NCBI GenBank assembly: GCA_965197475.1
Contig: CBDANF010000002.1
Location: 512,001-576,000, forward strand
Length of the DNA stretch: 64,000 nucleotides
Direction: 5' to 3'
Source: Candidatus Poribacteria bacterium
GTDB taxonomy: Bacteria; Poribacteria; WGA-4E; WGA-3G
A program made the position numbers and the translations under genes. Positions within the stretch are counted from its first letter, which is position 1. Each line of letters begins with the position of its first letter. The notes under the pieces were generated by a model. It searched no databases. It saw nothing but the letters and a program-made list of their open reading frames with translations, and was not told the DNA's origin. This document shows, one piece after another, positions 12,463-31,510 of this stretch.

Positions 12463-12531
12463 CAGAGCCATTCAGTTTTCGGTATTTTGTCCGTTTTAGT
12501 CGTAAAGTCGCGATTCGGAGATCGCTCCTAC
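12463..12531. mobile_element. One-ended MITE copy 2; its REP supplies the terL stop codon
   Basis: CAGAGCCATTCAGTTTTCGG followed by REP GTAGGAGCGATCTCCGAATCGCGAC (minus strand). Confidence 0.65.
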
Positions 12532-14453
12532 CGCAACTGTACACTGGCATGGTAGACGCGGCCGCTGCCGAGCCGTTGCCCGCCTTGTAGACTCAATATA
12601 AAATATGCGGTGCTGTCGATGCCGTGATTGTCACCTTTGATTGCCTCGTCATCCCTGTTCGTGCCCCGCATGTTCTCGTCATAAGTACAACTGAGAAACT
12701 CATCTGTGACTTCAAGTGGACGATATGTATCCTTCAAATCTTCATCTGGCGGATGGACAAGCCTATCCCGTAGGAAAAAGATTGCCGGTGCGCCGGTTGC
12801 GTCTACCTTTAGCCGTTCCTTGATAGCGTCAATTTGTGTGGCACGCGACTTTTTAGGTTGTTTGACAAGGAAACCTGCGCGCTGTAGCTGCTCAACTGCG
12901 TCCTGATCTGCACTGTCTACCGCTGCGTATTGTATGCGGTCTGAATTATCACAATTTGCTTGTATCATCCGTATGAAATCGGGCTTTGTGAGTTTTGTCT
13001 TGTATATCTCCTTGTATGCGTAGATGCGATCATCGTGGGACCGCGCCCACCATATACAGCTGGATGGGTTGCGGTATCCCCAGTCGATGCTGATATAGCG
13101 CGCCCATTTTGAGGAAATGGTGAAGTTGTCGATGACATGCACTTCTGGCAGAAATGTATCAAATACGAGTCCTTCCCCTGATGCCCATTTTCCTTCGTAT
13201 CCGCGTTTATAGCGCAATCCTTCAAGGTTTTGTAACCGTTCGACGCGTCGCTTGCCTTTTTCGGTTAACTCGCCAGTCTGTTGATTGTATATTTCGGGAT
13301 TGTCTCGGAATGTCATCTCGAAATATGCAAGTTTTCCAGCTTTTGTCTGCTGTCGAATCCAGTGGTTCGGTGTGCTAGGATTACAATCTCCGAGTAGGAA
13401 AGCGATGGGCATTGTGCCTGCGCGCTCGGAGACTCGTGCGGTGAGTTCGTCCCATGTATCGAATGAAACGAGTTCTGCTTGGTTGACGAACGCTGCATCA
13501 AAGAAGTCGGATAGTAGGTTCTGCGGTTTGTCTAATCCGTTCATGTAGATGCGCGATCCGTTCCAGTATTCAAAGAAGTCGGGATGTTCGCCGCCGTATC
13601 GTGTGATGGGTGTTGAATTCGGGTCGGCGCGACTTTTGGGTCGAAATCCGAGATATTTTTCATAAGTTGGGATGATGTTTCGGTATACTCTGTTGAGACT
13701 GCGGTGAATGAAGGTGAGTCGTGCGCCGGGGTATGTCCTCGCTAACTGGTCTATGTATGCGACGCAGCTAAAGGTTTTGCCTGCATCATAGGTGCCGCCC
13801 GCAATTTTTATGCTTGCGTGTGATTTGAATAGGTCGCGCATTTGTCCGTGAGGACAGAATCCGTTGGGGTTGTATTGGATGATGGGTGGTCTTTGTTTGG
13901 GGGCAGGTATGATGGTATATGTTTGCTGGTTTTGGCACTTGGTTTGCCCATTGTTTGCTATGTGCTTTTTGTCTTCCACCTCGGGTAGAGCGGATTGATA
14001 CTGCTCCATATCGGGATGCAGATGTGTTAGTAGTTGTGGTTCTTCGTCAGGCTGTTGGACTTCGTCGGTTTGTTCTGGATGGTCGGATTGCTCTGCTTGA
14101 TCGTTGGGTGTTGGATTGTGCAGCGATCTGTTGGTCTTTTGATTTTTTGCGTTATGTTTCGCTGCTTGTTTTTCCTTATATTTCCATTCGGAGATGCGTG
14201 CGTTGGTATCGTATCCTTGTTGGTCGATGTTTTCGCGTTTCCTCTGTGTGTCTTTTGTTCGAATAAGTTTGCCGTAGTCGTCTATACATTTGGATAGCTT
14301 TTTGGCTCTATCAGGATCGTTAACGTTCTTCTTGACTTTCTGAAATTCCTCATTAAGCACGTTCAACATCTCATCATACATGATATACGCCAGTTCTTTC
14401 GGATGGTTGTCTCGGCTGTTTTTACGGTTGGGGTGTCGTTTTTGTTTTTTCAT
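12528..14453 (-). CDS. Solo phage terminase large subunit-like protein (PBSX/Terminase_3 type) with N-terminal extension
   Basis: GGTYDAGKT Walker A, FVNQAE at Walker B position, GDCNP, HWI, DNP, G.W...EGLVF, IDWGYRNP, VDSA, DNHGIDSTAY. Confidence 0.85.
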   Translation of the reverse strand: MKKQKRHPNRKNSRDNHPKELAYIMYDEMLNVLNEEFQKVKKNVNDPDRAKKLSKCIDDYGKLIRTKDTQRKRENIDQQGYDTNARISEWKYKEKQAAKHNAKNQKTNRSLHNPTPNDQAEQSDHPEQTDEVQQPDEEPQLLTHLHPDMEQYQSALPEVEDKKHIANNGQTKCQNQQTYTIIPAPKQRPPIIQYNPNGFCPHGQMRDLFKSHASIKIAGGTYDAGKTFSCVAYIDQLARTYPGARLTFIHRSLNRVYRNIIPTYEKYLGFRPKSRADPNSTPITRYGGEHPDFFEYWNGSRIYMNGLDKPQNLLSDFFDAAFVNQAELVSFDTWDELTARVSERAGTMPIAFLLGDCNPSTPNHWIRQQTKAGKLAYFEMTFRDNPEIYNQQTGELTEKGKRRVERLQNLEGLRYKRGYEGKWASGEGLVFDTFLPEVHVIDNFTISSKWARYISIDWGYRNPSSCIWWARSHDDRIYAYKEIYKTKLTKPDFIRMIQANCDNSDRIQYAAVDSADQDAVEQLQRAGFLVKQPKKSRATQIDAIKERLKVDATGAPAIFFLRDRLVHPPDEDLKDTYRPLEVTDEFLSCTYDENMRGTNRDDEAIKGDNHGIDSTAYFILSLQGGQRLGSGRVYHASVQLR

Positions 14454-14508
14454 ACTGATATTATAACTGATGGTGGGTGGTGATCAGAAGTTTTTGTGGT
14501 GCGCGGAA

Positions 14509-14535
14509 CAATAGATATCCAATAGATATCCAATA
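14509..14535. repeat. 11-bp tandem repeat upstream of terL
   Basis: CAATAGATATC x2 plus a partial CAATAG. Confidence 0.7.
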
Positions 14536-14647
14536 GGTTTGTGGGAAAGGTGGGTTTGGAGGCGTTTTTTGTCTGAATCGCGGATTTGCGCGGAAGACGC
14601 GGATTTTAAGAGGTCTCTTTTGGACATGTATACTGCTAAGTGTTTAC

Positions 14648-14814
14648 CAGAGGCATTCAGTTTTCGGTTTTGAATGTAAATCCGTGCGATTTCCGGGTTC
14701 GGAAATAATGGGCGGGCACAGGGACCCGCCCCTACAATAGCAGTGTCTCTCTGAAGAAAATCGGGGTTACAAACCCCTCCTACAAGAGTATTTCGCGACA
14801 ATTGAATGGCTCTG
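14648..14814. mobile_element. MITE copy 3 carrying two REP hairpins
   Basis: Same TIRs; perfect 10-bp target duplication AAGTGTTTAC; REPs GTAGGGGCGGGTCCCTGTGCCCGCCC and GTAGGAGGGGTTTGTAACCCCGA. Confidence 0.88.
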
Positions 14815-14832
14815 AAGTGTTTACAGAATTGA

Positions 14833-14862
14833 TTGACTTTTTTAACTTAATTATAGTATACT
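14833..14862 (+). promoter_or_regulatory. Sigma70-like promoter for the MTase-HNH gene
   Basis: TTGACT-N18-TATACT. Confidence 0.55.
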
Positions 14863-14938
14863 GTTCATGTTAAGACAATTTATATATAAGATAAAAGTAT
14901 ATCAAAATCCTGAATAATAAATTTGGGGAGATGCTTTG

Positions 14939-16573
14939 ATGGTACAGGACATAGATAATACACTTTACGAGATGGACAATTTGGAGGTACTGCGTGGAAT
15001 CAATAGTAACAGCATAGACCTCATCGCAACAGACCCGCCATTTAATACTAAGCGCAACCGAAGCGGTACCGCTGGATTCTATGTCGATAAATGGAAATAT
15101 GGGGATACGGACAAACTTCCGGATCAATGGAAGTGGAATGAAGTCCATCCGAAATGGCTTGAAACTATCCAAGATGGACACCCTGCACTCTACCAAGTCA
15201 TTGAAGCCACAAAGGTTGTTCAAGACGAGGATACAGCTGCGTTTCTCTGTTTTCTCGGTGTCCGGCTCCTTGAAATGCACCGTATCCTAAAAGATACAGG
15301 TAGCATCTATTTGCATTGCGATCCAACCGCAAGCCACTACATCAAAATGTGTATGGATGCTATCTTTGGCAAAAAGAACTTCAGGTCTGAGATTACATGG
15401 AAGCGTGCAACATCTACACAAAAAGGCTCTCAACATCAGAGTAAAAGATGGGGAAATAACGCAGATATACTCTTGTATTATGCAGCATCTTCAGTCACAT
15501 CATTGTCTCCAGAGAGAGAATTGACAGAAACCGAAATCTTGGAGAAATTCAAACACGTAGACGAGAATGGACAACGCTATTACGACGACTCCGCCCATAT
15601 TTGGAGGACTCCAAATATGGGCGCGCGTCCGAACCTTTGTTATGAGTGGCGTGGTTTCGTCAATCCGCACCCATCTGGGTGGCGGTTAAGCAAAGAACGT
15701 TTGGAGGAGGAATATCAAAAAGGAAACATCGTTATTCGCTCTGATGGAAAACTGGAACGGCGGAAGTATCTAAAAGATTATAAAGGTGCATCCTATGGTA
15801 ATATTTGGGATGACGTGCCTCCACCCAGAGGTGAAGAACGCACAGGATCGCCCGACCAAAAACCGGTCACTCTCTATGAACGCATTATCAAAGCCAGTAG
15901 CAACGAGGGTGACATTGTGTTAGACCCGTTTTGTGGGTGTGCGACAACGATTATCGCCGCCAATAACCTTAAACGTCGGTGGATAGGTATTGATAGACGT
16001 AAAGACGCACGTTACCACATTATCACACGCCTTATGGGAATTGACCCAAAAGAGCGAAAGCGGATTGAGAAATACGCAACAGATAAAACATGGCTCGACA
16101 AACAGATGCAAAAAAATGAAATGCACTACCAAACTGAACCGCCTACCCGCACTGATAATCAGGAAACCGCAGCAGCCGAGTTACCACCTGTTCTTCCAAT
16201 TACTGAAGAATTTCAAATGACGCGCGCAGAAATACATAGGACGCTCGTAGAGCAGTTTGGACCTTACTGTTGGGGCTGTAATTTTGAGGCACCTGATCCG
16301 CGCTACCTTGAACTTGACCATATCAACCCAAAAAGTGGAAAGGATGACTATGGGCAGCATCATATTAATAACCGTGCGCTCTTATGTAAACCTTGTAACC
16401 TCGAAAAAAGCAACCGTATGACACTCCCTCAGCTGCGTAAAATCAACGAACAAAAAGGATATATGAAGGAAGGTACGCTCATTGACTTAAGCAGAGCAAG
16501 CGAATGGACGTGGCAATATCTTGTGCAACGGATTCGAGAAACGCCACATCAATATAACTTAAGGGGAATGTAA
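14939..16573 (+). CDS. Beta-class N4/N6 DNA methyltransferase fused to a C-terminal HNH endonuclease
   Basis: DPPF precedes DPFCGCATT; CWGC...LDHINPK...NRALLCKPCNLEKSN. Confidence 0.9.
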   Translation: MVQDIDNTLYEMDNLEVLRGINSNSIDLIATDPPFNTKRNRSGTAGFYVDKWKYGDTDKLPDQWKWNEVHPKWLETIQDGHPALYQVIEATKVVQDEDTAAFLCFLGVRLLEMHRILKDTGSIYLHCDPTASHYIKMCMDAIFGKKNFRSEITWKRATSTQKGSQHQSKRWGNNADILLYYAASSVTSLSPERELTETEILEKFKHVDENGQRYYDDSAHIWRTPNMGARPNLCYEWRGFVNPHPSGWRLSKERLEEEYQKGNIVIRSDGKLERRKYLKDYKGASYGNIWDDVPPPRGEERTGSPDQKPVTLYERIIKASSNEGDIVLDPFCGCATTIIAANNLKRRWIGIDRRKDARYHIITRLMGIDPKERKRIEKYATDKTWLDKQMQKNEMHYQTEPPTRTDNQETAAAELPPVLPITEEFQMTRAEIHRTLVEQFGPYCWGCNFEAPDPRYLELDHINPKSGKDDYGQHHINNRALLCKPCNLEKSNRMTLPQLRKINEQKGYMKEGTLIDLSRASEWTWQYLVQRIRETPHQYNLRGM

Positions 16574-16729
16574 ACTGTTTTACGTTTTCATTGAGTGCCT
16601 TGTAGTTATAGGTTAGGTAGCGCGTAAGCGAAACCCAACATTAATGTGTTAGCATTATCCACAAGAAATCAGCATTTGGTGGAGTACCAGTTAAGCAAAA
16701 AATACTGTTGATAACAAACTGGAGATAAA

Positions 16730-18190
16730 ATGGTAGAATTCTATAGATTTAGAAGCATAGATGCTCTATTAGATAAATACCAAGAACTTGAGAAACGGAC
16801 TATCTATTTTGCTGATCCAGAAGAATTGAATGATCCAATGGAAGGTTTTCGAGATATTGTGTGGAATGGTGATAAAATTGTCTGGACCAAATTTATCAAG
16901 CATTATGTTTTTTGTCTACATCGGAGTTATTTGCTTCTTGCAATGGTCAGAAACTCTACTAAATTAGATGTGGACAGTATTCCAATATTAGACCGTTGGG
17001 ATCAACTTACAATTCCTTTAGAGAAGGATTTGTTTGATGGTATCTGGAATAATTTCCACAATTTACTTAACATAAAAGAAATCATTGAGGCATTAGCGCG
17101 CCCGGAGCGCAAAATCAGATATAGAGAGATCGGATATTATCTTCAAGGTATACACTTTGTTCTTTTAGGTGAAATCCAAAAATCACATATTGAACATGGA
17201 CTCATGTCCGAACTCCAAATTCCCAAACTATCTTACGAATTGTCTACCGCAGCATCAATGGAAAACCTCCTCAACCTCATAGAACTAACCGAGGCAGTCG
17301 AAGACGAAGAGCAACTCAACGCTATATTTCATGTATGTGGAGACCGATACGATGATATAAGGCTTGAGCTGCTGTACAATAGTCGAACAATACACACAGG
17401 AATATTAGCGAAGAATACTCAATTAGTGACAGTTGATTTTCCCAAGGTATACGTTGAACAACTTGAAAGGTTACTTTGGTCCAAGTGGTACACGGCTTGT
17501 TTTACGAAAAGTTACCACAACTCATCTGTATGGGGACATTATGGGGATAACCATAAAGGAGCCTGTTTGATTTTTGAAGCTATAGAAACAGATAACTCAA
17601 ATCAATTAGGTTTGAATCTAACAACCGATAGCGGAACCAGAACATTGTTTTTCCATGAGGTTAATTATGCAGAAAAACCATGTGAGATTGATTTCTTTCG
17701 AACCATTTGCAGAGAGATGACAGTGGATATGCTCATGAAACAGTGGTACACTGATCATGAAGGGAACACCTCTAAATGTGCCGCGCATATTGAATCACAG
17801 GGAGGCGATGAAGATGTGTGGAAAAAAAGATATTGGGAGGATGTATTTCGCGACATTACTACCAAAACCACAGATTGGGCGTATGAGCAAGAATGTCGTC
17901 TAATTTTAGAAGACGGCTTAAGTCAATTCAATGAAAAAAAAGAACGCACACTAATTTATGACTTTAATTCGTTGAAAGGTATTATTTTTGGGATCAAAAC
18001 ATCAACTGAAGATCAAATGAAAATCATTAATATTATAGAAAAAAAGTGGGGTAAAAACAAACGGACTGACTTTAAGTATTATCAGGCTTACTACTGTCCT
18101 ATAAAGAGGAAGATTCGCAAGAGGCAGATATATTTGCCATTTTCTAATGTTAAAGATACTGACCAAGCCGTCTCAACGTCCAACCAATAA
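16730..18190 (+). CDS. DUF2971 domain protein
   Basis: FYRFR, LNDPMEG, ACF...WGHYGDNHKGACLIF, KTTDWAYEQECR, GIIFG. Confidence 0.85.
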   Translation: MVEFYRFRSIDALLDKYQELEKRTIYFADPEELNDPMEGFRDIVWNGDKIVWTKFIKHYVFCLHRSYLLLAMVRNSTKLDVDSIPILDRWDQLTIPLEKDLFDGIWNNFHNLLNIKEIIEALARPERKIRYREIGYYLQGIHFVLLGEIQKSHIEHGLMSELQIPKLSYELSTAASMENLLNLIELTEAVEDEEQLNAIFHVCGDRYDDIRLELLYNSRTIHTGILAKNTQLVTVDFPKVYVEQLERLLWSKWYTACFTKSYHNSSVWGHYGDNHKGACLIFEAIETDNSNQLGLNLTTDSGTRTLFFHEVNYAEKPCEIDFFRTICREMTVDMLMKQWYTDHEGNTSKCAAHIESQGGDEDVWKKRYWEDVFRDITTKTTDWAYEQECRLILEDGLSQFNEKKERTLIYDFNSLKGIIFGIKTSTEDQMKIINIIEKKWGKNKRTDFKYYQAYYCPIKRKIRKRQIYLPFSNVKDTDQAVSTSNQ

Positions 18191-18289
18191 TGAAGTTCTC
18201 ATGGGAACACCTCTCTGTCACAACATTTAATAAAATAATTATACACTCCATCATTATAGTGGATTTTACAATTACTTAGATATTGCCAA

Positions 18290-18515
18290 TCGGCGAGGTT
18301 AGGAAACCTCGCCTACCGGGAAGTGTATATTTACTGAAACATCGCAACAGCGCGCTTACAAAAGCGCGCCTACTTTGTTTTAGACGTTGTGAGTATGACA
18401 ACCGTAGGTTGGATAGAGCGCAGTGAACCTAACAATTTAAGTCCTGTGCTATTCTACTAATTAGCGGACGGAGGACCCACGGCGTGTGCCTGCTACCATG
18501 TTGGATTTCGCGCGA
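18290..18515. repeat. Cluster of several different GTAG-REP hairpins
   Basis: GGCGAGGTTAGGAAACCTCGCCTAC, GCGCGCTTACAAAAGCGCGCCTAC, GTAGGTTGGATAGAGCG... Confidence 0.75.
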
Positions 18516-18566
18516 ACAAGAGCGCAATGAGCAGAAGCGGACACACTTATCCCTGAAAGTGGGTTT

Positions 18567-18866
18567 ATGGGTTTCGGCATTTTGATGACAACGGTGCTGA
18601 TGCTATTTCGAATGCGGTTTGTATGGTGGCCGTTTCATCCTGCCGGTTTTGCTATTTCTACTAGTTGGGGCATGAACGTTACATGGGGTTGTCTTTTTAT
18701 GAGTTGGTTATTAAAATGGCTCATTCTCCAGCATGGTGGTCCTATAAGATATCGTAAGATAGCACCGTTCTTTTTAGGTTTAATTCTTGGTGAGTTCACG
18801 GTTGGGAGTGTGTGGACAATTCTTGGAATTGTTCTGGGCATACCTACTTACGGCTTCTGGGTCTAA
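18567..18866 (+). pseudogene. C-terminal fragment of a DUF6784/DUF6785-type membrane protein
   Basis: WWPFHPAGF...WLLKWLILQHGG..YRK.APFFLGLILGE; the upstream part is replaced by the REP cluster. Confidence 0.65.
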
Positions 18867-21589
18867 TTCCTATCTTGGCGTGGATTGATTGCCAGATTTA
18901 ACGGTAACAGCAGTAAGATAAGACTGCATAAAGACGTTACAATCCATTCCTGCTGAAGCGGTACGATTTCCAATAAATTCTGCATAGGAACGATGTACAT
19001 TGCTGACACGTGAAATCCAATGACAATTATCAAAATTATGAATAGACGTATGTTGGTGAACATCCTTTTGAAAAGAGACTCCCACGGATATCGTGTGCAT
19101 TGGAAATAAGATACCACCTGTGTAAAAATGAGCGTAGTACAGGCTGCAGAACGTGCTTCTTGAAGATTAGACTCGGTTGCAAAAGAAATCAACACCAAAA
19201 AATGGATAATTGCCATTAAACTGATGACAAGACTCCGGCAGACAATATCAAACACAGCAGTTTTCGGTAGAAGCATAGTTGCCCTATTGGGGCGATGTTG
19301 CTTTTCATTGACAGAAATTTTTTCGTAACCTAACCCGAATGCTGGGAGCATAGTAGTTAAAAATTGAACCCAAACCACCTGTGTTAGTGTCAATGGCATC
19401 TCAAACTTGAACGATGCGTGCAAGATTAATCCAAAGACGACAGTCAAAAACTGTGCCAGTGTGCACGAAAGACACCATCGAAGTGAACCCGAAAGGTTTT
19501 GATACGCTTCTCGCGCATAGAGCAAGCAGTCTTTGACTGCTTTGAATCCTTTTTCTACTATCAGACAATCTGCATGTTCTTGGGCGAAATGTGCAGCGTA
19601 TCTCGTATCTGTAAATGCGAGGTCTGCAGTAATCATAGCGCGTTGATCATTAGCATTTTGACCTAAAAAACCCACAGAATGATTGTGACGTTTCAAGCTA
19701 AGAACAATATTCCGACGTTGTTCTTGTGTAGGTTGAGAATAAGCATTCCAATTTGGAACCTCTTTGTCAAACTCTTGCGTAGAGAGTTTTATTATTTCTT
19801 TTCTTGTTCCCACTGCATTGCGTGTATGAACAAGACCCAACTCTTTGGCTAAATCAGTTGTTGTTTGTTCATCACTATCACTGATTAGGATGACCTTTAA
19901 ACCAGTGTCCATGAATGATTTTATGACCTCTTTTGTTTCTTCGTTATCAGTGGAAGAAAAACTGATAAAACCTAAAAAGGTTGATATTCCCTGGACCTCT
20001 TGTGGTGTTAGAGGCACCTCGGAATGTAGGGTTGCAACACCGTAAACGGTATCTCTTGAGTTTTGCATGTAATTGAGGATTTCACTACACATCTCGTACT
20101 GCTCATAGTAGAATTCATTTACCTCTCCATTTACGAGCATAGAATCAGAAGCCTCAAGCACATTGCGTGCATCGCCAAAAATAATGTTCAGATATTCGTT
20201 TTCACCTGATTCAAACACATGAAGTTCATAACCGAAATTAGGGGTCCATGGGTATTCTGAAACAAGCTCCATATTAGATTTCAGCCCTGCCAGCTTATAT
20301 CCGAGTTGTTCCATTGTTTCTTGGATGACGTGTTGATGTGCATGTTCAATATCGGTTCTATCATAGTACCGTTCACCACAAGTCCCTAATCCTGCAGCCA
20401 ACACAAGGCCGGGTGCCCCTTTCGGAATTTGAAGCCGTGGCGGAATATTGTTGACTCGTGTACTTTTTTCTTCTGGCGACAAGGATTCAAGCGTATTTAA
20501 CCAATTTTCCCACACTGAACGATTTATCATCTGTTCATCAACAAAGATGTTGGAAATAGTAAGAGATTTTGTGCTTGCGATGCCTTTTTCATCTGAACAA
20601 AAAGCAGTGAGACGGTTTAACTTCTCAAGGAATTGTCTATTCCGGAGTGCTATTCCTTTTTTAAGCAAGCCAATGGCTTTCTGATCAAGAATGGTGTGTA
20701 GTAGCAAAAGTAAGTCATGGGGCGTTGCGACGATTGCAAAAATTAAACCAAATTGAAGGTATTCTTTCCAATTCGTTGGAACACTCTGTTGGGATTTTTG
20801 CCACCAGAAGATAGCAATTGCTATTCCGCCGACAATCAGACCTGCAACTTTTAGTATATCTGAAAAGAATTTTATCTGATTTTCAGCGACAGTCATCTCA
20901 TTTGGTAGCGGGCGTGTGTCCCCACGGTTCTGACACATTTCAAGTTCGTCACCTGTTCTGACTACGATCGCGTGGCCCATTCCTGTATCAACGTACGTTC
21001 CACCAAAAATCATATTTGTCTGCTTTTCCGGGGAAAGTCCTACCTCGTTTATCTCTTGGGTGGTTTTTATTGCTGAACCACTGCTCCCAAATAGAGCAGA
21101 TTCGTTAACTGTTAACCCATCTGCTTGAACAATTCGTGCATCGGCAGGTATGTAGTTACCAGGTCTAAGAAGAAGAAGGTCGCCAGGTACAATATCGGAA
21201 GGTGCACATTTTTCTTGCTTGCCTTGGCGAATTACCGACACAGTGACATCAAATTGTGCTTTAAGCTGCTGCTGTTTACGGTGAAAACCCATTGAAACTA
21301 TAATCGCCCAGCAGATGGAAAGAATCAAAATCCCGCCGATAAGTGCAATTGTCGGAATATCAATAGGAAAAACGAAAACTACTATGGCAAGTACTAAAAG
21401 CAGTAATTTCCAGTTAAGGACATGTTCCAGTAAGGTCCTAATCTGCCAAGTGTCCATCTTGGAATTTGGTACATTTGTACCATAACTTTCCTTTAACCTT
21501 TCTACATCAGCGTGGCTCAAACCGTATTCAAGGTCAGTATTGAATTGGTTTAGCAAAAAAGAGATACTTTCTGCATAAAAATTAGACAT
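18863..21589 (-). CDS. P-type (P2-like) cation ATPase homolog with degenerate catalytic motifs
   Basis: GLS...YGTN, IVPGD, IPADAR, full TM layout; DKTGT appears as DEKGI, TGES as FGSS, GDGxND as GQNAND. Confidence 0.85.
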   Translation of the reverse strand: MSNFYAESISFLLNQFNTDLEYGLSHADVERLKESYGTNVPNSKMDTWQIRTLLEHVLNWKLLLLVLAIVVFVFPIDIPTIALIGGILILSICWAIIVSMGFHRKQQQLKAQFDVTVSVIRQGKQEKCAPSDIVPGDLLLLRPGNYIPADARIVQADGLTVNESALFGSSGSAIKTTQEINEVGLSPEKQTNMIFGGTYVDTGMGHAIVVRTGDELEMCQNRGDTRPLPNEMTVAENQIKFFSDILKVAGLIVGGIAIAIFWWQKSQQSVPTNWKEYLQFGLIFAIVATPHDLLLLLHTILDQKAIGLLKKGIALRNRQFLEKLNRLTAFCSDEKGIASTKSLTISNIFVDEQMINRSVWENWLNTLESLSPEEKSTRVNNIPPRLQIPKGAPGLVLAAGLGTCGERYYDRTDIEHAHQHVIQETMEQLGYKLAGLKSNMELVSEYPWTPNFGYELHVFESGENEYLNIIFGDARNVLEASDSMLVNGEVNEFYYEQYEMCSEILNYMQNSRDTVYGVATLHSEVPLTPQEVQGISTFLGFISFSSTDNEETKEVIKSFMDTGLKVILISDSDEQTTTDLAKELGLVHTRNAVGTRKEIIKLSTQEFDKEVPNWNAYSQPTQEQRRNIVLSLKRHNHSVGFLGQNANDQRAMITADLAFTDTRYAAHFAQEHADCLIVEKGFKAVKDCLLYAREAYQNLSGSLRWCLSCTLAQFLTVVFGLILHASFKFEMPLTLTQVVWVQFLTTMLPAFGLGYEKISVNEKQHRPNRATMLLPKTAVFDIVCRSLVISLMAIIHFLVLISFATESNLQEARSAACTTLIFTQVVSYFQCTRYPWESLFKRMFTNIRLFIILIIVIGFHVSAMYIVPMQNLLEIVPLQQEWIVTSLCSLILLLLPLNLAINPRQDRN

Positions 21590-21636
21590 CGTTTTTCCTA
21601 ACGTCTCACGTTTCTGACAAAAGTTGCTATAGATAT

Positions 21637-22569
21637 TTATAGTGAGGAATTTTCGTCCTCGTTAGTCCAAACCTTTGCGCCATCCAGATCAGTACCGAGT
21701 ACCTTAATTTCGCATGGGATATCATGTAGTTTAAAGACATCTCGCATGCAATTCCCAACTTGGTCCATATTATTCAAACAATATGCTGCGATTGTTGGTC
21801 CCGCGCCACTCAATGCGATACTAAGTGCTCCTGCAGATGTCGCGGCTTCAACGACATCATCAAATCCAGGAATTAGGGTGCTGCGATAAGGTTGATGCAG
21901 CTTATCCTTCATTGCCAGCGGTAACATATCCAATTTTCCGGTAGCGATGCTTGCGACAAGTAAGGAACTTCTACTTATATTATAGATAGCGTCAGCAAAA
22001 TCAACATTTTTTGGCAATATGTTTCGTGCTTTCTTTGTGGACAATGTAAATTCAGGAATAGCGAGTACTAAATAAAGCGCGGAGTCACATTCTAACTGGA
22101 TTGTATGGATATGTTCTCCGTCTTGCACAGAAATGACCATACCGCCATACAGAGAAGCAGCAACATTATCGGGATGTCCCTCTATGGCTGTTGCAAAATT
22201 GAGGAGTTCTGACCAAGAGAACGGATTGCCACACAAAACATTTGCTGTCAGTAGCCCCCCAAGAATAGCTGTGCCGCTTCCCCCTAAGCCGCGAATTGCC
22301 GGAATTCCGTTCACAATGCTCAATTTCAAACCTTTGGGCTGTTGCATGCCACTCCTTTGAAAAATGGACTCTACTGCTTGAAACGCAATATGGTCAGTGG
22401 TACTTGGTATCTTATCAACATCAACTCCACTGACAACAACTTCTGTCCTGTTTTCAGTGGTTTCTAACGTTACTGTGCTGTAAAGTTGTAATGCAAGACC
22501 CAGCACATCAAATCCGGGGCCAAGGTTTGTGGTACTTGCAGGAATACGCGCGGTTACTTTTCTATACAT
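21637..22569 (-). CDS. thrB: Homoserine kinase
   Basis: PASTTNLGPGFDVLG, RGLGGSG, EGHPDNV, DKLHQPYR, LSGAGP. Confidence 0.96.
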   Translation of the reverse strand: MYRKVTARIPASTTNLGPGFDVLGLALQLYSTVTLETTENRTEVVVSGVDVDKIPSTTDHIAFQAVESIFQRSGMQQPKGLKLSIVNGIPAIRGLGGSGTAILGGLLTANVLCGNPFSWSELLNFATAIEGHPDNVAASLYGGMVISVQDGEHIHTIQLECDSALYLVLAIPEFTLSTKKARNILPKNVDFADAIYNISRSSLLVASIATGKLDMLPLAMKDKLHQPYRSTLIPGFDDVVEAATSAGALSIALSGAGPTIAAYCLNNMDQVGNCMRDVFKLHDIPCEIKVLGTDLDGAKVWTNEDENSSL

Positions 22570-22682
22570 ACGAGTATTTTTCCTACTTTTCCTATAACTT
22601 TCTATAGTTTGGGCAATTTAGGAACTGTCGCTTGTTGACTGATTGAATGGAAACATTGTATTTATCTATCTGCATTGTTTGA

Positions 22683-22913
22683 TCCACCTGTCGCCCCGCT
22701 GGGGCTTTAGAAGGTGATAACCATGTGTCCTATCCACCTGTCGCCCCGCTGGGGCTAAGGTTTAATCTTGTAATACTTATCTTTTGATGCGATTTTACTT
22801 AACTGACAGAAGTCGTTGAAAAATACTTTGGACAGCCCCAACCAGCGGGGCGGAATGTGTATAGCAAACAGGAACCTTAGCATAGTAAGCCCCAGCGGGG
22901 CGACAGGTGTATA
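22683..22913. repeat. REPIN/BIME-like array of GCCCCGCTGGGGCT palindromes (2 direct, 2 inverted)
   Basis: TCCACCTGTCGCCCCGCTGGGGCT x2 and inverse AGCCCCAGCGGGGCGACAGGTGTATA. Confidence 0.8.
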
Positions 22914-22995
22914 ATAGCATATAATCCAGTTAATACCTAAGGTGTTCCATCAACCTAAGTTATGACACAAGAACTCTAAAATTGTCCAAATTTCC

Positions 22996-24168
22996 CTATA
23001 ATTTTGCAATTGCGGTTTTTATCCGGTGCAACGCATCTTCAATATTTTCCAACGAATTTGCGTACGAAAGCCTGAGGTAACCATCGCCAAATTTTCCGAA
23101 AGCTGTGCCCGATAATAAAGCGACTCCGACTTCATCCATCAAATAATCAGCGAGTGCTTCGCATGAAAGAGGGAGTTGTGTGACATTCGGGAAAACATAG
23201 AATGAACCGAGGGGTTTAATACAACTGATACCTTCAATAGCATTTAGACCATCCACAATGGCATCGCGTCGTTTTCGGAATTCTGTAACCATTTGCGTGA
23301 CAAATGTTTGAGGTCCCGTCAGTGCTTCTATTCCAGCAATCTGTGTAAAGGTTGCAGTGCAGGAATTTGAGTTGATTGTCAACTGGGTGATCTTGTCTGC
23401 GATTGCGCGTGGTGCGACACCGTACCCGAGCCTCCAGCCGGTCATAGCGTACGTTTTAGAATGTCCGTCAATCAGAATTGTCCGTTCTTTCATACCGGGG
23501 AGACTCAGTATACTCTGATGAGTTCCCTCGTAAAGGAGGCGAGAATAGACTTCGTCCGTGAGGATATAAAAATTATGTTTTTGTGCAAGTTCGGCTATTG
23601 CAGCGAGGTCTGTATCTGTGAGGATGCCGCCAGTTGGGTTCTGTGGGGAATTGAGTATCAATAGTTTAGTGCGTTCACTAATGGCATTGATGAGATCATC
23701 AATTCGAAAACGAAAGTCAACCTCCTCACGAAGGGGGAGAGGCACTGCTTTTCCACCGATAAAATCAATAACCGATTCGTAGACGGGGAAGCCGGGTTCT
23801 GGATAGATAACCTCATCACCTTCATCAACTAATGCTAAAATTGTGAAAAAGATTATCGGTTTTGCACCAGGTGTAACGGTTACTTCATTTGGATGGATGT
23901 CAATACCGCGCGTCTCGGATATGTGTTGGGCAACGACCTCTCGAAATTCAGGTAGTCCCGCAGATGGGCAATAACCTGTATGACCTTCTTTCATTGCCTT
24001 GAATGCAGCTTCACATACATTCATTGGGGTCGAAAAATCTGGCTGACCTATTTCTAAATGAATAATATCTTTACCTTGTGCTTCTAAGTTTTTGGCTTTA
24101 GCTAACACCTCAAATGCAGATTCTGTTCCCAAGCGACTCATTCGCTTGGCGAATGTAGGGCTTCCCAA
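22996..24168 (-). CDS. PLP-dependent class I/II aminotransferase (aspartate aminotransferase-like)
   Basis: IGQPDF, NSPQNPTG, DEVY, SKTYAMTGWRLGY. Confidence 0.93.
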   Translation of the reverse strand: MGSPTFAKRMSRLGTESAFEVLAKAKNLEAQGKDIIHLEIGQPDFSTPMNVCEAAFKAMKEGHTGYCPSAGLPEFREVVAQHISETRGIDIHPNEVTVTPGAKPIIFFTILALVDEGDEVIYPEPGFPVYESVIDFIGGKAVPLPLREEVDFRFRIDDLINAISERTKLLILNSPQNPTGGILTDTDLAAIAELAQKHNFYILTDEVYSRLLYEGTHQSILSLPGMKERTILIDGHSKTYAMTGWRLGYGVAPRAIADKITQLTINSNSCTATFTQIAGIEALTGPQTFVTQMVTEFRKRRDAIVDGLNAIEGISCIKPLGSFYVFPNVTQLPLSCEALADYLMDEVGVALLSGTAFGKFGDGYLRLSYANSLENIEDALHRIKTAIAKL

Positions 24169-24288
24169 AATATCACTCCTTTATTTTATAACTTTTAACC
24201 GCGATCCCATGGTCGCGAGTATGCCCTAATATATTTCTTTACAACAAACATCTTTTAGATAATTGCATATACCTGTCTTGCTCAGCGG

Positions 24289-25302
24289 CTATTCTGATTT
24301 TAAGATAGTCCCTATTGCCCCTGCTACCCAAGTATTTTGTTTATCAAGGACAAAAACTTTGACTATTTTTTCCTTGGATTCTTCAACTTCCCAAGTCATG
24401 CCACCATCGGTGGTACTGAGGATGACACCGGCACCGAAGTCACCTCCAACAGCCCATCCCACATTTTTGTCTGCGAATCTGATACTGTTTAGTTTCTCTT
24501 CGGTTCCGCTTGTCTGCGGTGTCCATTCATCTCCACCGTTTTTCGTATGGAGAATCAAACCGTTTTCTCCAACTACCCATCCCGTTGAAGCATCAATGAA
24601 GAAGATATCTTCAAGGATATCATCTCTCCCGATTTCCTGGTGAACCCAAGTTCTCGCTCCATCCTTAGTTTTCTGAATAACACTTTTCTGCGTCTTTGTA
24701 TCGGGAAAAACGCGTATTCCGGCAACCCATCCAGTTTTTTCGTCAATAAACTGAATCGCACTGAACATACTTGCCTCGTCCTCGCCGACACCACCACCGA
24801 GTTGTCCACCTTCTAGGACTTTCCATGACCGTCCGCCATTTCTTGTTGAGATAATAGTGTCATTTTCTCCTGCTGCATATCCTATATTTTTATCAACAAA
24901 ATAAATACTCTTTAGCGCGGTACCAGCCTTACTGATTTGTAACTCCCAATCTTTTCCGTTAGTTGTATTGGCAATTATGCCTTTTTGTCCAACAACCCAA
25001 CCCCGATTAGCATCTAAGAAGTAGATTCCAGTGAGGTCTGCACTGAGTTTAATTTTCGATTTTTGCCACGTTTTTCCCCCATCATTGGTATATCCGATGA
25101 ATCCCGGGTTGTCAAAATCCTCAGCCAGTGCGGACCCAGCAACCCATCCAGTTTTTTTATCTGTAAATGCAATAGACATATAATCTCGAGCTTCTGGATC
25201 GTTTTTTTGCAATACGACCCACCCTGCCATGGCTGGAAAAGCAATTACTACTGTCAAAATGATTGCGAATCTAATGATTTTTGCTAAGTTTAATCTGTTC
25301 AT
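24289..25302 (-). CDS. Secreted YCF48/BNR-repeat beta-propeller protein
   Basis: Signal peptide; repeated F.D...GW.VG..G.I..T.DGG.TW. Confidence 0.88.
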   Translation of the reverse strand: MNRLNLAKIIRFAIILTVVIAFPAMAGWVVLQKNDPEARDYMSIAFTDKKTGWVAGSALAEDFDNPGFIGYTNDGGKTWQKSKIKLSADLTGIYFLDANRGWVVGQKGIIANTTNGKDWELQISKAGTALKSIYFVDKNIGYAAGENDTIISTRNGGRSWKVLEGGQLGGGVGEDEASMFSAIQFIDEKTGWVAGIRVFPDTKTQKSVIQKTKDGARTWVHQEIGRDDILEDIFFIDASTGWVVGENGLILHTKNGGDEWTPQTSGTEEKLNSIRFADKNVGWAVGGDFGAGVILSTTDGGMTWEVEESKEKIVKVFVLDKQNTWVAGAIGTILKSE

Positions 25303-25453
25303 TGTAACTCCTTTACTTTTAAAATTCCTTCTGATTAAGAGGGTTATTTATAGTATAACTGTGTATCTCACATTAAGTCAAATATTTCTAAAATCTATTT
25401 CAGTAAAACATTGATAAACGCGCATAGCAAAGTAACTCATCCGTAATGACATA

Positions 25454-26854
25454 CTATTTAGCAACGATAATTGTTCCGGTTTTGAAACTGTCCCCAACTT
25501 GTAATTGATAGATATAAACCCCGCTTTCGACAATTTCTCCGTTTTCATTTTTACCATTCCACCTCAGTTCGGTTTCACCAAGTTGAGCGGTTAGCGTTCT
25601 AACGAGAACACCATTCAGATTAAAAAGAAGCACACTGAATTCACCCTCGCCATCTTCAATACTCCGTGCTGGAAAGACAACGGTGTTAAAATCTGGATCC
25701 TGTGAAAGCGGTGTAAATGGATTCGGATAAGGTTTATCAAATATTCGGTGCCTTTTCTTAGTAGGCGCGGATTCGTTATCAGCCTCGTCAATCGCAATTA
25801 TGGCATAAGTGAAACTGCCCGTTGATAATGGTCGACTATCAACGAATTTGTATTCAGTAGCTCCATTTGCTGCTTTTTCAGCGTGTATCTCTCCATTCGG
25901 AAGCGGCTCAAGCGTATCTGACTCAGAGGATCCGAACAAAATTCGGTACACTGATACGTCACGACTAACACTCGGCATCCACAAAACTTCAATACCTTCG
26001 CTTGAGGGAACAATACGGAGTGCAGTTGGAGGCTGAGGTGCAGCGGTGTCTTCTAATACTTTCGCGGTTTGTATCGGTGAGCGTTCTGATTGCAATAAAA
26101 TTGTTTTATATGCGGTTACCTGATACGTATGAAGTCCTGCTGGAACGTTCACATCAAGGAATGTAGTTGACGAGCGATTTTCAACCTTAATTGGAATTTC
26201 CTTATCTCCTCTATAGATGAGGTAACCGTTTACATCTATGTCCGTTGATTTTTGCCATCGGAGTGTCACATCGTTTTCACCGGTTTTGTCGGCTTCAGCA
26301 GTGAAATCAGAAACTGGGGCAGGTGGTACATTTGGGATTACTTGCAAAGTGAAATCATCGTTATTGAGTTTTCCATCTGCTTGTTCTGGTCGGATAAATT
26401 CACCGATTGGTACGTCATCACGATTACGTAACTGTACGCTGAACACTGCTTCAAAAACAGTATTTGGTGTTCGAGAATCAAATGCGATATCGTATATAGA
26501 ATTCCGAAAATCTATGATCGGTTCTGCAAGTTCTACACGCAGGACATTCCCTCCAGAAATTATCGCCCTTGCTATTAGTTCTTGGCCATCACGCGAAATA
26601 CCTTTGAAATCTGCCAATTGGGTTACAAATCCTTTAGGCATTGTAATTTCAATAGTCTTAATTTCTTCACCTGGTTCTGCCAATGACCTGTCAATTACAA
26701 GTGTCACAAGTAGTGGCACCGTTGAACTGGCGGGGACAATGCCTTTGGTTTCACCCACGACGTTGATTTCGCCGACTGATGTGACTGCACCGTAACTTTG
26801 CGGAACGATAAGGATACTAACGAGAAAGATTAAAATAAGGATTGAGTTTTTCAT
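25454..26854 (-). CDS. Secreted FN3-repeat protein with FlgD/T9SS type B-like C-terminal domain
   Basis: LRW...GYLIYR, YAIIAIDEADNES, PNPFTP, WNGKNENGEIVESGVYIYQ. Confidence 0.8.
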   Translation of the reverse strand: MKNSILILIFLVSILIVPQSYGAVTSVGEINVVGETKGIVPASSTVPLLVTLVIDRSLAEPGEEIKTIEITMPKGFVTQLADFKGISRDGQELIARAIISGGNVLRVELAEPIIDFRNSIYDIAFDSRTPNTVFEAVFSVQLRNRDDVPIGEFIRPEQADGKLNNDDFTLQVIPNVPPAPVSDFTAEADKTGENDVTLRWQKSTDIDVNGYLIYRGDKEIPIKVENRSSTTFLDVNVPAGLHTYQVTAYKTILLQSERSPIQTAKVLEDTAAPQPPTALRIVPSSEGIEVLWMPSVSRDVSVYRILFGSSESDTLEPLPNGEIHAEKAANGATEYKFVDSRPLSTGSFTYAIIAIDEADNESAPTKKRHRIFDKPYPNPFTPLSQDPDFNTVVFPARSIEDGEGEFSVLLFNLNGVLVRTLTAQLGETELRWNGKNENGEIVESGVYIYQLQVGDSFKTGTIIVAK

Positions 26855-26871
26855 AAGGCATAATCCCTTCT

Positions 26872-27828
26872 TTAGAATAGTAGATTTACGGAGAATCGTT
26901 GTGTTGTGTTGTCCTGTAAATCTCCGGTGAGTAGCTGGAATCCGTAATCAAGTTGAAGTGATGTTCCACTGATCGGTATCTTGGCACTTCCGCCGAGACT
27001 TAGGGTTGTAGTCGAATTTCCGCCATTTTTCATTCCGTAGCCTCCTCGGACACCGATGGCTTTATTCACCCAGATTTCTACACCAACGCGTGTATAAACA
27101 TCACCGTTTCGCGCCGCAACTTCAATAGTACCTAACGTTGCTTTCAACAAGTTACTGATTGTCTCGCCCTGCGCGCTCATCTCAGCGATAGATTCAAGAT
27201 TATAAGCCAAACCTGCCCGAATGTTCCGTGGCACCGAATCCGTCTGATTATCGGAAATGCTTATGTCTGCAGGCAGTAAATTCTCCACTGATACGCCAAT
27301 GCTCAGGCTATTGAACGGCTTTGCAATTACACCCAGATCAAAGGAAAAAGCTGAACTTGAAGTATGGGCAAAATACGGATTCTCAATGACGGATTCATTT
27401 CCTTCATCATAAGCTATGCCAAAGAATTTTAGATTTACACCAAATCCCAATTGTTTGAAAATAGTGTTCGCATAAGAGAGGCGTAACGTTTGTTCTCTAT
27501 AAATATCAGAATCTTCTGCCAAGATACCGATATTGGCACCGATTGTTCCCATTCGTCCGAAGGGAATAATGCCTCCAATTGTGTTGTAGTTAACAAGACC
27601 GTTGAATCGCTGTGCATAAGTCGCGCCGATCTGAATTTCCTTAATATAGGCTAAGCCAGCAGCGTTGTAGTTAGCGGCGTTACTATCATCAGCGAGTGCG
27701 ACAAACGCTCCACCCAGCCCGAGAGGACGAGCACCTATGCCGATGTCATTAAAGGCAGCAAACGTAGATGTGGTGAAGAATAGGGACATTAACAGGATAT
27801 AATAGCATTTCAATCTAATTTTTGTCAT
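26872..27828 (-). CDS. PorV/PorQ-family outer-membrane beta-barrel
   Basis: GIGARPLGLGGAFVALADD...YNAAGL, FDLG, RAGLAY, C-terminal F. Confidence 0.82.
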   Translation of the reverse strand: MTKIRLKCYYILLMSLFFTTSTFAAFNDIGIGARPLGLGGAFVALADDSNAANYNAAGLAYIKEIQIGATYAQRFNGLVNYNTIGGIIPFGRMGTIGANIGILAEDSDIYREQTLRLSYANTIFKQLGFGVNLKFFGIAYDEGNESVIENPYFAHTSSSAFSFDLGVIAKPFNSLSIGVSVENLLPADISISDNQTDSVPRNIRAGLAYNLESIAEMSAQGETISNLLKATLGTIEVAARNGDVYTRVGVEIWVNKAIGVRGGYGMKNGGNSTTTLSLGGSAKIPISGTSLQLDYGFQLLTGDLQDNTTQRFSVNLLF

Positions 27829-27836
27829 GGTTTCTC

Positions 27837-28535
27837 CTACGGTGTTCCTGTCATCGGAACAAAACTAACGCCTGTGACCCTTGTCGTTTCAACTTTACCA
27901 GAACATTTCTGTATCACGAACAGTTCCTGTGTATCAGAACCGACAGGAATTACCATGCGTCCATCTTCAGCGAGTTGTTGTGTAAGTTGATGTGGAATCT
28001 TTTTTGGGGCAGCTGTTACAAGCACGCCATCATACGGCGCGTGCTCAATCCAACCGTAATAGCCGTTCCCTTGTTTAAGATAGATGTTCCGATAATTTAG
28101 TGCTTTTAGTCTTGAATTGGCACTTTCTGCAAGTTCTGGTAGAATTTCAACGGAATACACTTCCTGGGCGAGTTCTGCTAACACAGCAGTTTGGTATCCA
28201 CACCCAGTTCCAATCTCCAGGACTTTTGAATAAGGGTTTAATTCTAATAATTCTGTCATCAATGCGACCATATAAGGTTGTGAAATTGTTTGTCCTTTGT
28301 CTATAGGAAGGGGCCTGTCGTGATATGCCCACTTATGAAATTCAGGTGTTACGAAGAGGTGTCTTTGGATTTTTTCCATCGCTGCCAGTATTTTAGGATT
28401 CCGAATATCGCGGTTTTCAATTTGGTATTTAACCATTTTCTGTCTGACGCTCATAAATTTATCGGCATGTACCATTGAATGTTTCCCTTGAATTTCGTTG
28501 TTTACGTCGATTCCCAAAATATAACCAAACATCAA
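27837..28535 (-). CDS. pcm: Protein-L-isoaspartate O-methyltransferase (true start may be slightly downstream)
   Basis: GQTISQPYMVA, VLEIGTGCGYQTA, APYDGVLVTAA. Confidence 0.95.
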   Translation of the reverse strand: MMFGYILGIDVNNEIQGKHSMVHADKFMSVRQKMVKYQIENRDIRNPKILAAMEKIQRHLFVTPEFHKWAYHDRPLPIDKGQTISQPYMVALMTELLELNPYSKVLEIGTGCGYQTAVLAELAQEVYSVEILPELAESANSRLKALNYRNIYLKQGNGYYGWIEHAPYDGVLVTAAPKKIPHQLTQQLAEDGRMVIPVGSDTQELFVIQKCSGKVETTRVTGVSFVPMTGTP

Positions 28536-28537
28536 TT

Positions 28538-30922: not shown

Positions 30923-31303
30923 ACTCAAAGAATTGTCCTCTTTGGGGTGGTCGAAATTTATTTTTATACAATACCATATTTCTAAAAAAATGGCAAGAGA
31001 AAAGTTGTATAGGCAAAACGTAACATTGTACTTATTCTAATCCAAAACAGGTGGCGATAGATTGCTTTTAACTATTGTGTGAGGTATACATTAGCACATA
31101 TTCTGCTAATTGTCAAAATTAATTAACTGCCATTTAGGACTATTTAGTTTTAAGCTTTTTGTCCATTTTAGCCGAAAAGTCGCGATCGGGAGGTCGCTCA
31201 CGCCAATGCCATAAGCGCATTTGACGTTGATTCACGGCGGAGAATCTTAAACCGAAATCTAACTGAATCTTATCCTGTAGGCATAAGCCAGGAGCATCAA
31301 ACT

Positions 31304-31510
31304 GTGTCAAATTTTTCCATTGATGTAAAAGCTGGCGGTACCTACCTTTTGAAAGGTGAATTTGCCAATGATGCCGGAGACGAATTTTGCTTTGAATTAA
31401 TCGATACAGATGAAGTCGTTAGCGAACCCAAGACATCTGGCAAATCTACATTCAATTTTCAAGATTCCGGCAATTATTCATTTCAGACGGAAGGTGAATT
31501 TCATTTCTAA
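31304..31510 (+). CDS. Small acidic hypothetical protein
   Basis: AGGAG RBS, GTG start, beta-rich composition. Confidence 0.35.
   Translation: MSNFSIDVKAGGTYLLKGEFANDAGDEFCFELIDTDEVVSEPKTSGKSTFNFQDSGNYSFQTEGEFHF

Follow-up and report, generated by a model that had tools for sequence, protein, structure and literature searches.

The 64,000-nucleotide stretch of DNA analyzed here, called the window below (positions 512,001 to 576,000 of contig CBDANF010000002.1 from a Candidatus Poribacteria bacterium, assembly GCA_965197475.1), carries an open reading frame (ORF) at 18863..21589 that very probably encodes a conserved, non-pumping pseudo-P-type ATPase present throughout the phylum Poribacteria. 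P-type ATPases are defined by aspartyl-phosphate chemistry, and the product of this ORF, P0001, is homologous end to end to the P2-type (LMCA1/SPCA/SERCA-like) ATPases and has lost the residues expected for phosphorylation, ATP binding and ion binding. In the explanation that we consider likely, P0001 belongs to a catalytically dead member lineage of the P2-type ATPases, an ancient Poribacteria clade, and may act as a static scaffold or adaptor in the membrane whose cytoplasmic headpiece has been put to a new use. A preliminary description of the window had proposed a full-length pseudo-ATPase in an intact frame without giving its strand; the minus strand is added here, together with the domains of the protein, as follows.

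18863..21589, minus strand, pseudo-P-type ATPase ORF, 908 aa (P0001), from the ORF list, Pfam and HMMER alignment
Residues ~1-55 and 106-240 of P0001, minus strand, N-terminal part and A domain, by alignment
Residues 56-105, minus strand, M1-M2, by alignment
Residues 241-320, minus strand, M3-M4, by alignment
Residues 321-355 and 536-690, minus strand, P domain, by alignment
19985..20524, minus strand, N domain, residues 356-535, by alignment and profile-profile comparison
Residues 691-908, minus strand, M5-M10, by alignment

The ORF starts with ATG, preceded at 8 nt by an AGGA Shine-Dalgarno-like box, and runs uninterrupted for 908 codons, as first described. In Pfam searches, P0001 matched E1-E2_ATPase (PF00122, residues 115-301), Cation_ATPase_C (PF00689, 731-894) and Cation_ATPase_N (PF00690, 5-71), and neither the HAD hydrolase model PF00702, for the P domain, nor the Cation_ATPase model PF13246, for the N domain, was found in it. 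Across the family, PF00702 was detected in 7/44 members, failing in 37/44, and PF13246 in 5/44, as against 30/30 canonical controls for each model. The best solved relatives were Listeria LMCA1, human SPCA1 and SERCA, with E 2.5e-42 for the single sequence in HMMER and E 6.8e-76 for the family profile, and the whole length of P0001 was matched except part of the N domain. As a single sequence, that domain gave zero PDB chain matches at E up to 1 and zero matches to Pfam families; its family profile aligned to the canonical N-domain profile with a probability of 99.5% (E 3e-23) at 11% identity. The earlier claim that all transmembrane segments are uninterrupted stands by homology, as the LMCA1 alignment extends through M1-M10, but it does not follow from hydrophobicity alone, since a Kyte-Doolittle scan detected M1/2, M3, M4, M5, M7, M9 and M10 and left M6 and M8 below threshold; the ten helices are accordingly predicted from the alignment. 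The NCBIfam subfamily model for P-type ATPases, TIGR01494, was passed at 84.1 bits (cut-off 62.3), whereas all equivalog models scored far under their cut-offs (TIGR01522, PMR1-type, 207.2 vs 798.3 bits; TIGR01116, 148.7 vs 703.4 bits). In the ESM Atlas, the homologue P0011 returned only Bacillota Ca-ATPase clusters. Taken as homology, these matches place P0001 by descent within the P-type ATPase superfamily, on its P2A-like branch, with a predicted architecture of A, P and N domains and a ten-helix M domain.

The roles of the P-type motifs in phosphorylation, dephosphorylation, Mg/phosphate binding, ATP binding and ion binding are established for SERCA-type pumps. To verify the eight motif substitutions listed in the preliminary description, P0001 was aligned with LMCA1/SPCA1 in HMMER and with canonical relatives in MAFFT, and the coordinates were checked; all eight are present at homologous positions of P0001, where, for example, CSDEKGI aligns under the CTDKTGT of the solved relatives.

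21080..21091, minus strand, A-domain dephosphorylation loop, FGSS for TGES, residues 167-170
20711..20722, minus strand, M4 ion-site motif, PHDL for PEGL, residues 290-293
20579..20593, minus strand, phosphorylation motif, DEKGI for DKTGT, residues 333-337
20165..20179, minus strand, N-domain ATP site, FGDAR for KGAPE (Lys to Phe), residues 471-475
19943..19954, minus strand, P-domain motif, STDN for DPPR, residues 546-549
19874..19882, minus strand, P-domain motif, SDS for TGD, residues 570-572
19646..19663, minus strand, P-domain motif, GQNAND for GDGxND (first Asp to Gln), residues 643-648
19352..19366, minus strand, M6 motif, QFLTT for NLVTD (ion-binding Asn and Asp gone), residues 742-746

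The losses extend beyond these motifs. The conserved Lys position of the P domain is R625 in P0001, and five N-domain positions, canonically F, K, M, K and R, hold W448, G453, E455, F471 and T514; the ATP-site K, F and R, conserved at 97-100% among 38 canonical sequences, are thereby replaced by F471, W448 and T514. At the M5/M6 ion-site positions P0001 has T710, Q713, Q742, T745 and T746, which vary across the clade, and the equivalents of the M4 Glu, the M5 Asn/Glu and the M6 Asn/Thr/Asp reach top-residue frequencies of 0.2-0.64 with no constant charge. Still kept in P0001 are D333, the Asp of DKTGT, and N647 and D648 of GDGxND. In total, 38 of the 69 positions that are at least 95% invariant among 38 canonical relatives are replaced, so that the erosion of motifs in P0001 is beyond chance. 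None of the sequence features tested for a functional phosphoenzyme pump (DKTGT, TGES, the HAD P-domain motifs and the ATP-site residues) would predict such activity for P0001, and the cation-site residues of M4, M5 and M6 and the equivalog score likewise speak against a P2A Ca2+-ATPase.

The fate of the lost and kept positions was compared between 25 deep representatives of the clade and the 38 canonical relatives. The 38 lost canonical-invariant positions show a conservation of 0.71 against a background of 0.69 in f1, the family of the source genome among the working labels f1-f11 for families of the phylum, and of 0.42 against 0.445 in the deep set, whereas the 31 retained positions stand at 0.91 and 0.83, respectively. 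The lost catalytic positions thus evolve at the background rate, and the retained, fold-defining positions stay conserved. The survivors include V119, R121, PGD, PAD.R, E163, K175, N192, G203 and TG in the A domain, together with the M4 proline, E322, G472, G540, G563, G643, D648, R693, W740, P749 and N846; all 25 deep representatives keep the helix-breaking Pro290 of M4, and 96% of them keep D648, the final Asp of GDGxND. Residues conserved specifically in the family include F349, D351, L395, A399, Y617, F641, A692, W705, D781, R785 and R833. Of 63 family sequences, 28 have D at the position of the nucleophile itself, 26 have N, 5 E, 3 Q and one S, a distribution that requires at least eight changes between D and non-D on the FastTree topology. 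Among the orthologues, NENGL, DEIGT, NEIGN, QQATN, EREWG and others stand in place of DKTGT, and FGTE, FGAE, FDGA, FGRS, TGRA and others in place of TGES. In the most distant lineages, the assignment of motif columns is alignment-dependent; the columns of DKTGT, GDGxND and M6 are anchored by conserved flanks. Many f1 homologues of 42-49% identity carry insertions of up to ~13, 15 and 34 residues after residues 77, 410 and 805 of P0001, which fall, in that order, in the outer loop of M1-M2, in the N domain and in the outer loop of M7-M8.

A homologue of the ATPase was present in 175/176 Poribacteria genomes, including 133/133 of high quality, and the sole genome without it is 81% complete. Identity to P0001 is 66-83% within the genus, ~45% in the sister genus, 29-39% in other families of the order and 23-27% in other orders, and every orthologue inspected has an intact ORF of 899-985 codons. 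Each of the 118 close family proteins with a length of 850 aa or more has degenerate motifs, and so do all 26 distant orthologues (16 from f2-f4 and 10 loci from f5-f9); none of the f1-f9 sequences read has canonical motifs. In f10, a partly degenerate form (CSNKKG.., GDSANDV, KG..E) occurs beside canonical copies, and f11 has a canonical pump. This is a near-universal, apparently single-copy, syntenic core gene of the Poribacteria. The preliminary description had named simple decay of this copy, with canonical motifs in its orthologues, as one outcome that would undo its proposal; because the homologue is found in 175/176 genomes, its motifs are degenerate in every f1-f9 lineage sampled and its ratio of nonsynonymous to synonymous substitution rates (dN/dS) is low, local decay does not account for the gene.

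The selective regime was estimated by the Nei-Gojobori method, with medians taken from pairs with a dS (synonymous distance) below 1.2; the ATPase pairs compared had a dS of 0.8-1.0. Against same-genus orthologues, the dN/dS of the ATPase was 0.05-0.13, with a median of 0.113, compared with 0.097 for the neighboring thrB gene, 0.05 for the aminotransferase, 0.195 for the Ycf48-like gene and 0.135 for the FlgD-like gene. Over the same 12 genome pairs, a canonical P1B pump gave 0.086 against 0.113 for the pseudo-ATPase. Within the genus the P1B pump is 79-90% identical, and across the order's other families 41-48%, as against 66-83% and 29-37% for the pseudo-ATPase; in two g6 genomes the P1B pump was matched in two segments, at 58-61% identity. 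The dead copy therefore evolves somewhat faster than the working P1B pump, under comparable constraint. By domain, dN/dS was 0.078 for N, 0.067-0.074 for P, 0.118 for A, 0.117 for M5-M10, 0.15 for M3-M4 and 0.42 for M1-M2, making the P and N domains the slowest-evolving parts within the genus and M1-M2 the most relaxed, and the mean top-residue frequency of M5-M10 was 0.47 in the pseudo clade vs 0.49 in canonical pumps. With its catalytic residues gone, its orthologues intact and purifying selection acting on them, the protein qualifies by sequence as a pseudoenzyme, and the earlier proposal of a selected homologue is borne out.

An exhaustive profile search of 1.84 billion representatives returned 38,571 matches, in which the family's own representatives scored 1464-429 bits and the remainder at most 351 bits, and 120/148 of the newly listed proteins carry DKTGT, TGES and GDGxND. 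Nine full-length representatives are fully degenerate, eight of which map to Poribacteria families at 41-100% identity. The ninth, P0127 (916 aa, JGI/IMG), shares no more than 30% identity with any of the Poribacteria orthologues sampled, and a metagenome scan for its contig gave one weak, irrelevant match and did not recover it. The fully degenerate sequences lie on one side of a branch with support 100 in FastTree (16 representatives), and the same split has an SH-aLRT of 98 under both LG+G4 and LG+C20 PMSF in IQ-TREE (12 representatives). The trees place the f10 form between the fully degenerate sequences and the canonical pumps. The fully degenerate ATPases would therefore form one ancient clade, in Poribacteria, a placement made less than certain by long branches. 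The f10 intermediate form (L201 and L202 in G041 and G042, and also P0214) has Asn at the nucleophile and has lost TGES, partly keeps KG..E, a DPPR-like motif and GD.xND, and is accompanied by canonical P2 pumps in the same genomes. The metagenomic P2-type proteins P0183, P0199, P0224, P0239 and P0163 keep D-K-T-G and have lost TGES and/or GDGxND as well as ion-site residues; because these five branch inside canonical groups, partial erosion seems to have occurred repeatedly and independently. A GTDB genome scan with the distant-member alignment and a generic pattern kept 80 loci, all 80 of which were canonical pumps from other phyla, a result uninformative on pseudo-ATPases outside Poribacteria.

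The P-type ATPases of the source genome, G000, comprise the pseudo-ATPase and one P1B pump that is canonical for DKTGT, TGE, GDGxND and CPC. A canonical P2-type partner was found neither in G000 nor in 40 relatives. Canonical-type N domains (PF13246) were detected in 12/176 genomes, with none in G000 and 0/111 in the other f1 genomes; matches at E < 1e-15 are confined to f10 and f11, and five of the weak matches fall inside located pseudo-ATPase ORFs. One further weak match, G063:C108:15858-15992, lies in an 861-aa open frame on another contig than the G063 pseudo-ATPase and may represent a canonical P-type ATPase in a single f3 genome (9.1 Mb, 5% contamination). Apart from that match, essentially no canonical P2 paralogue was found in f1-f9, the partner for which the preliminary description had suggested looking, and a role as the regulatory subunit of such a paralogue, one of its proposed functions, is accordingly unlikely. 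This distribution suggests that most Poribacteria lack P2-type cation pumping, a point of relevance to any model of how these sponge symbionts maintain ion homeostasis.

The genes upstream of the ATPase on the same strand include a conserved cluster, listed below, as well as a FlgD-Ig-like gene and a PorP/SprF-like gene.

21637..22569, minus strand, thrB (homoserine kinase), directly upstream of the ATPase with a 47-nt gap, conserved adjacency
22996..24168, minus strand, class I/II (aspartate-type) aminotransferase, conserved cluster member
24289..25302, minus strand, Ycf48-like BNR beta-propeller with an N-terminal hydrophobic segment, conserved cluster member

The identity of thrB is supported by a score of 282 bits against a cut-off of 168. 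It lies immediately upstream of the ATPase in 79/80 close and 10/14 deep loci, and the Ycf48-like propeller is in the cluster in 78/80 close and 10/14 deep loci; in G045, the Ycf48-like gene itself borders the ATPase homologue on its upstream side, with thrB and the aminotransferase absent from the interval. Gaps between thrB and the ATPase range from -44 to 416 nt (median 96) and are 3-7 nt in some genomes. Synteny with thrB independently supports orthology of the ATPase across the phylum and is at most a weak lead to its function. Distance covariation of the ATPase with the FlgD-like gene or the DUF6784 tail gave no signal, and the partial r of 0.48 between ATPase and thrB distances is uninterpretable as relatedness was not removed from it. 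Two sponge metatranscriptome runs contain four short, low-depth contigs that match the window at 99-100% identity, possibly from carried-over DNA; those identical to it at 21516-21678, bridging the thrB-ATPase junction, and at 20354-20530, inside the ORF, are a weak hint of transcription, and uncovered stretches of the ORF are uninformative.

Given the replacement of the nucleophile by N, E, Q or S in many orthologues and the loss of the Mg/phosphate, ATP and ion-site residues, the earlier proposal that P0001 does not pump is strongly favored. No aspartyl phosphate would be formed or hydrolyzed, no phosphoenzyme (Post-Albers) cycle would run, and therefore no ion would be pumped. The selected function would then need the folded architecture and not the old active sites. 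In the mechanism that we put forward tentatively, and hold at somewhat less than even, P0001 would be a conformationally static, membrane-anchored scaffold or adaptor in which the P/N headpiece, the slowest-evolving part within the genus, has taken on a new task as the surface that binds a protein or small ligand, and the M1-M2 gating hairpin, no longer needed, has relaxed, reflecting the loss of A-domain-driven gating. A fuller scenario, attractive but on balance doubtful, is that a Ca-pump-like P2 ATPase of early Poribacteria became a non-catalytic core protein, a 'frozen pump' that needs the whole of its A, P, N and M domains, that the rebuilt headpiece now engages some new ligand or partner, perhaps a product of the gene cluster such as the Ycf48-like propeller or homoserine kinase, and that this protein replaced the canonical P2 pump almost phylum-wide.

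Several observations weigh against the dead-scaffold explanation or limit it. The analyses point to neither a binding partner nor a ligand, and the distance covariation of the ATPase with the Ycf48-like gene, controlled for species distance, was nil (partial r 0.05-0.10). The convergent DUF6785/6784 neighbor found in relatives is truncated in the source genome, and the ATPase gene is still kept there. Within f1, the polar M5/M6 residues S708, C709, T710 and Q742 and an Arg-rich P-domain patch (R625, R626 and R650) are invariant or almost so, and because of this an f1-specific ligand or solute site is possible. Activity by an unorthodox chemistry is conceivable in the lineages that keep the Asp, this copy included. 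The retained fold of P0001 is predicted from sequence and profile homology, RNA-library contigs are not proof that the ATPase is transcribed, and all sequences come from metagenome-assembled genomes, that of the source, G000, being 92.7% complete with 7% contamination.

Four other explanations were weighed, of which the passive carrier had already been raised in the preliminary description. In such a carrier or channel, the M domain would let an ion or small solute pass along its gradient with no need of ATP, and a gate or plug would be formed by the headpiece. The invariant M4 proline of the deep representatives, the kept W740 and P749 of M6, an M5-M10 region as conserved as in canonical pumps and, in f1, a polar and partly invariant pocket (S708, C709 and Q742) are all consistent with conduction. 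The pocket residues are, however, unconserved across the clade, without constant charge; M1-M2, which line the cytoplasmic entry in pumps, are the most relaxed part (omega 0.42), and the strongest constraint falls on the cytoplasmic P and N domains and not on the membrane part. The proposal of a passive carrier is left unsupported by the variable ion-site residues, and we consider it rather improbable; a scaffold or a sensor, which the preliminary description had also named, would both still fit the data. Unlikely, too, would be a subunit of a complex with the cluster products, in which P0001 is either a platform for the secreted Ycf48-like propeller, by analogy with the beta/Cdc50 subunits that sit on extracytoplasmic loops in P-type ATPases, or a membrane tether for homoserine kinase. 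Such a complex would fit the same-strand order of Ycf48-like gene, aminotransferase, thrB and pseudo-ATPase in 78-79/80 close and 10/14 deep loci, the direct adjacency in G045, the gaps of only a few nucleotides in some genomes and the insertions in the M1-M2 and M7-M8 outer loops of the sister genus; but gene order alone is weak evidence, the median gap of 96 nt and the longest of 416 nt are not short, the covariation with the Ycf48-like distance is not in excess, and thrB and the aminotransferase are ordinary housekeeping enzymes.

That P0001 could still be an ATP-driven pump or another phosphotransfer-type enzyme working with unorthodox residues is suggested by the Asp at the nucleophile position in this copy and in 28/63 family sequences, by the near-constant D648 and by the passing of TIGR01494. 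Syntenic orthologues, however, carry N, E, Q or S at the nucleophile. In DKTGT the Lys and the two Thr, in TGES the Glu, in GDGxND the first Asp and at the ATP site the Lys, Phe and Arg are replaced, as is TGD, and all of these vary between lineages; with the HAD Pfam model failing in 37/44 members and the equivalog scores far under cut-off (TIGR01522, 207 vs 798 bits), this explanation is highly improbable. Scarcely credible is a pseudogene or lineage-specific decaying copy whose reading frame was kept by chance, for which the eroded motifs speak and nothing further: intact ORFs of 899-985 codons in all inspected orthologues, a homologue in all genomes but one, a dN/dS of ~0.11 at a dS of 0.8-1.0, equal to that of housekeeping neighbors and close to that of the P1B pump, and 31 kept fold-defining invariant positions all contradict it.

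Compared with known systems, P0001 is most similar to the P2A Ca2+-ATPases (LMCA1, SPCA1/PMR1 and SERCA), which are its best matches and whose domain order, length and, by alignment, ten-helix layout it shares, along with the A-domain core (PGD, PAD.R, E..L.G, K175 and N192), the proline of M4 and, in M6, the Trp and Pro. It differs from them in that DKTGT, TGES, TGD, DPPR, GDGxND, KGAPE and the acidic and amide ion residues of M4, M5 and M6 are replaced and vary between lineages, and in that the PMR1-type equivalog model gives it 207 bits where the cut-off is 798. Transporter-derived sensors (transceptors) and pseudoenzymes are homologues of active machines that are kept under selection after losing catalysis or transport. 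Known transceptors usually retain the substrate site, whereas the ion site of the Poribacteria protein is unconserved.

The nearest described parallels are eukaryotic. TMEM94 (ERMA) of animals, a protein with a P-type ATPase-like fold, has ten helices, A/P/N-like cytoplasmic domains and the M4 proline and is without TGES, and one study detected neither ATPase activity nor Mg2+ binding in it and saw no nucleotide where phosphorylation had been proposed to occur (PMC12134183). Another group is reported to assign it Mg2+-ATPase activity (PMC13322241), and its status as a pump is disputed. TMEM94 differs from the Poribacteria family in being eukaryotic and much larger and in keeping the proposed phosphorylation Asp, and the two are likened here by description, not by sequence. 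In the P4-ATPase module of alveolate guanylate cyclases (P4GC), the DKTGT Asp and the A-domain Glu are lost or altered in Cryptosporidium, P4GC-beta, gregarines and Tetrahymena, and the module is described as having conserved predicted domain structures and being essential despite these losses (PMC13466520). P4GC belongs to the eukaryotic P4 lipid-flippase lineage and is fused to a cyclase that supplies the output, whereas in Poribacteria the homologue is of P2 type and stands alone, with nothing fused to it. A description of a bacterial dead P-type ATPase was not found in a literature search that was incomplete for subscription journals, in agreement with the preliminary description, whose author knew of none among bacterial P2 ATPases.

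If the 'frozen pump' scenario is true, these proteins would stand as the first bacterial family of free-standing pseudo-P-type ATPases, and nature would have tested in them what the P-type scaffold can do without its chemistry. A whole phylum would keep a full-length, chemistry-less copy as its only P2-type homologue, implying that the fold itself can carry a selected function, and the family may offer a simple prokaryotic system for the question debated for TMEM94, whether a P-type ATPase-like protein can work without a Post-Albers cycle. Public records name these proteins 'Ca2+-transporting ATPase' or 'cation-transporting P-type ATPase', which would amount to a systematic annotation error.

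In the surroundings of the gene, Rfam searches at 18000-31500 found neither a riboswitch nor a leader, and consensus scans for promoters and terminators at 18000-25600 gave 17 and 7 matches against shuffled expectations of 16.8 and 6.5. A sub-threshold match to ncS025 (Burkholderia sRNA 25; 34.2 bits vs a gathering score of 46) at 18284-18368 on the minus strand overlaps a GC-rich hairpin in the phage-remnant spacer. From 24289 to 27828, the Ycf48-like propeller, a C-terminal FlgD-Ig-like protein and a PorP/SprF-like outer-membrane protein form a set conserved in f1 and f2. On the other side of the ATPase, phage-derived DNA has been inserted at the locus (12528-18190), with no tRNA nearby, and carries the following ORFs.

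12528-14453, minus strand, terminase-large-subunit-like ORF
14936-16573, plus strand, DNA methyltransferase fused to HNH
16730-18190, plus strand, DUF2971/phrog_1762 ORF

Where the window has this insertion, relatives have a convergent DUF6785+DUF6784 gene of ~650 aa, of which the last ~110 codons remain here at 18531-18866, including a 99-aa ORF with a stop that shares 4 nt with that of the ATPase. The DUF6785/6784 protein was considered as an obligate partner of the ATPase and rejected, being convergent, f1-specific, one of at least 12 paralogues in G000 and truncated here. DUF6785 membrane proteins gave 14 matches in G000, at least 12 of them full-length (~650 aa), and were found in 0/14 control genomes, indicating a family expanded in Poribacteria.

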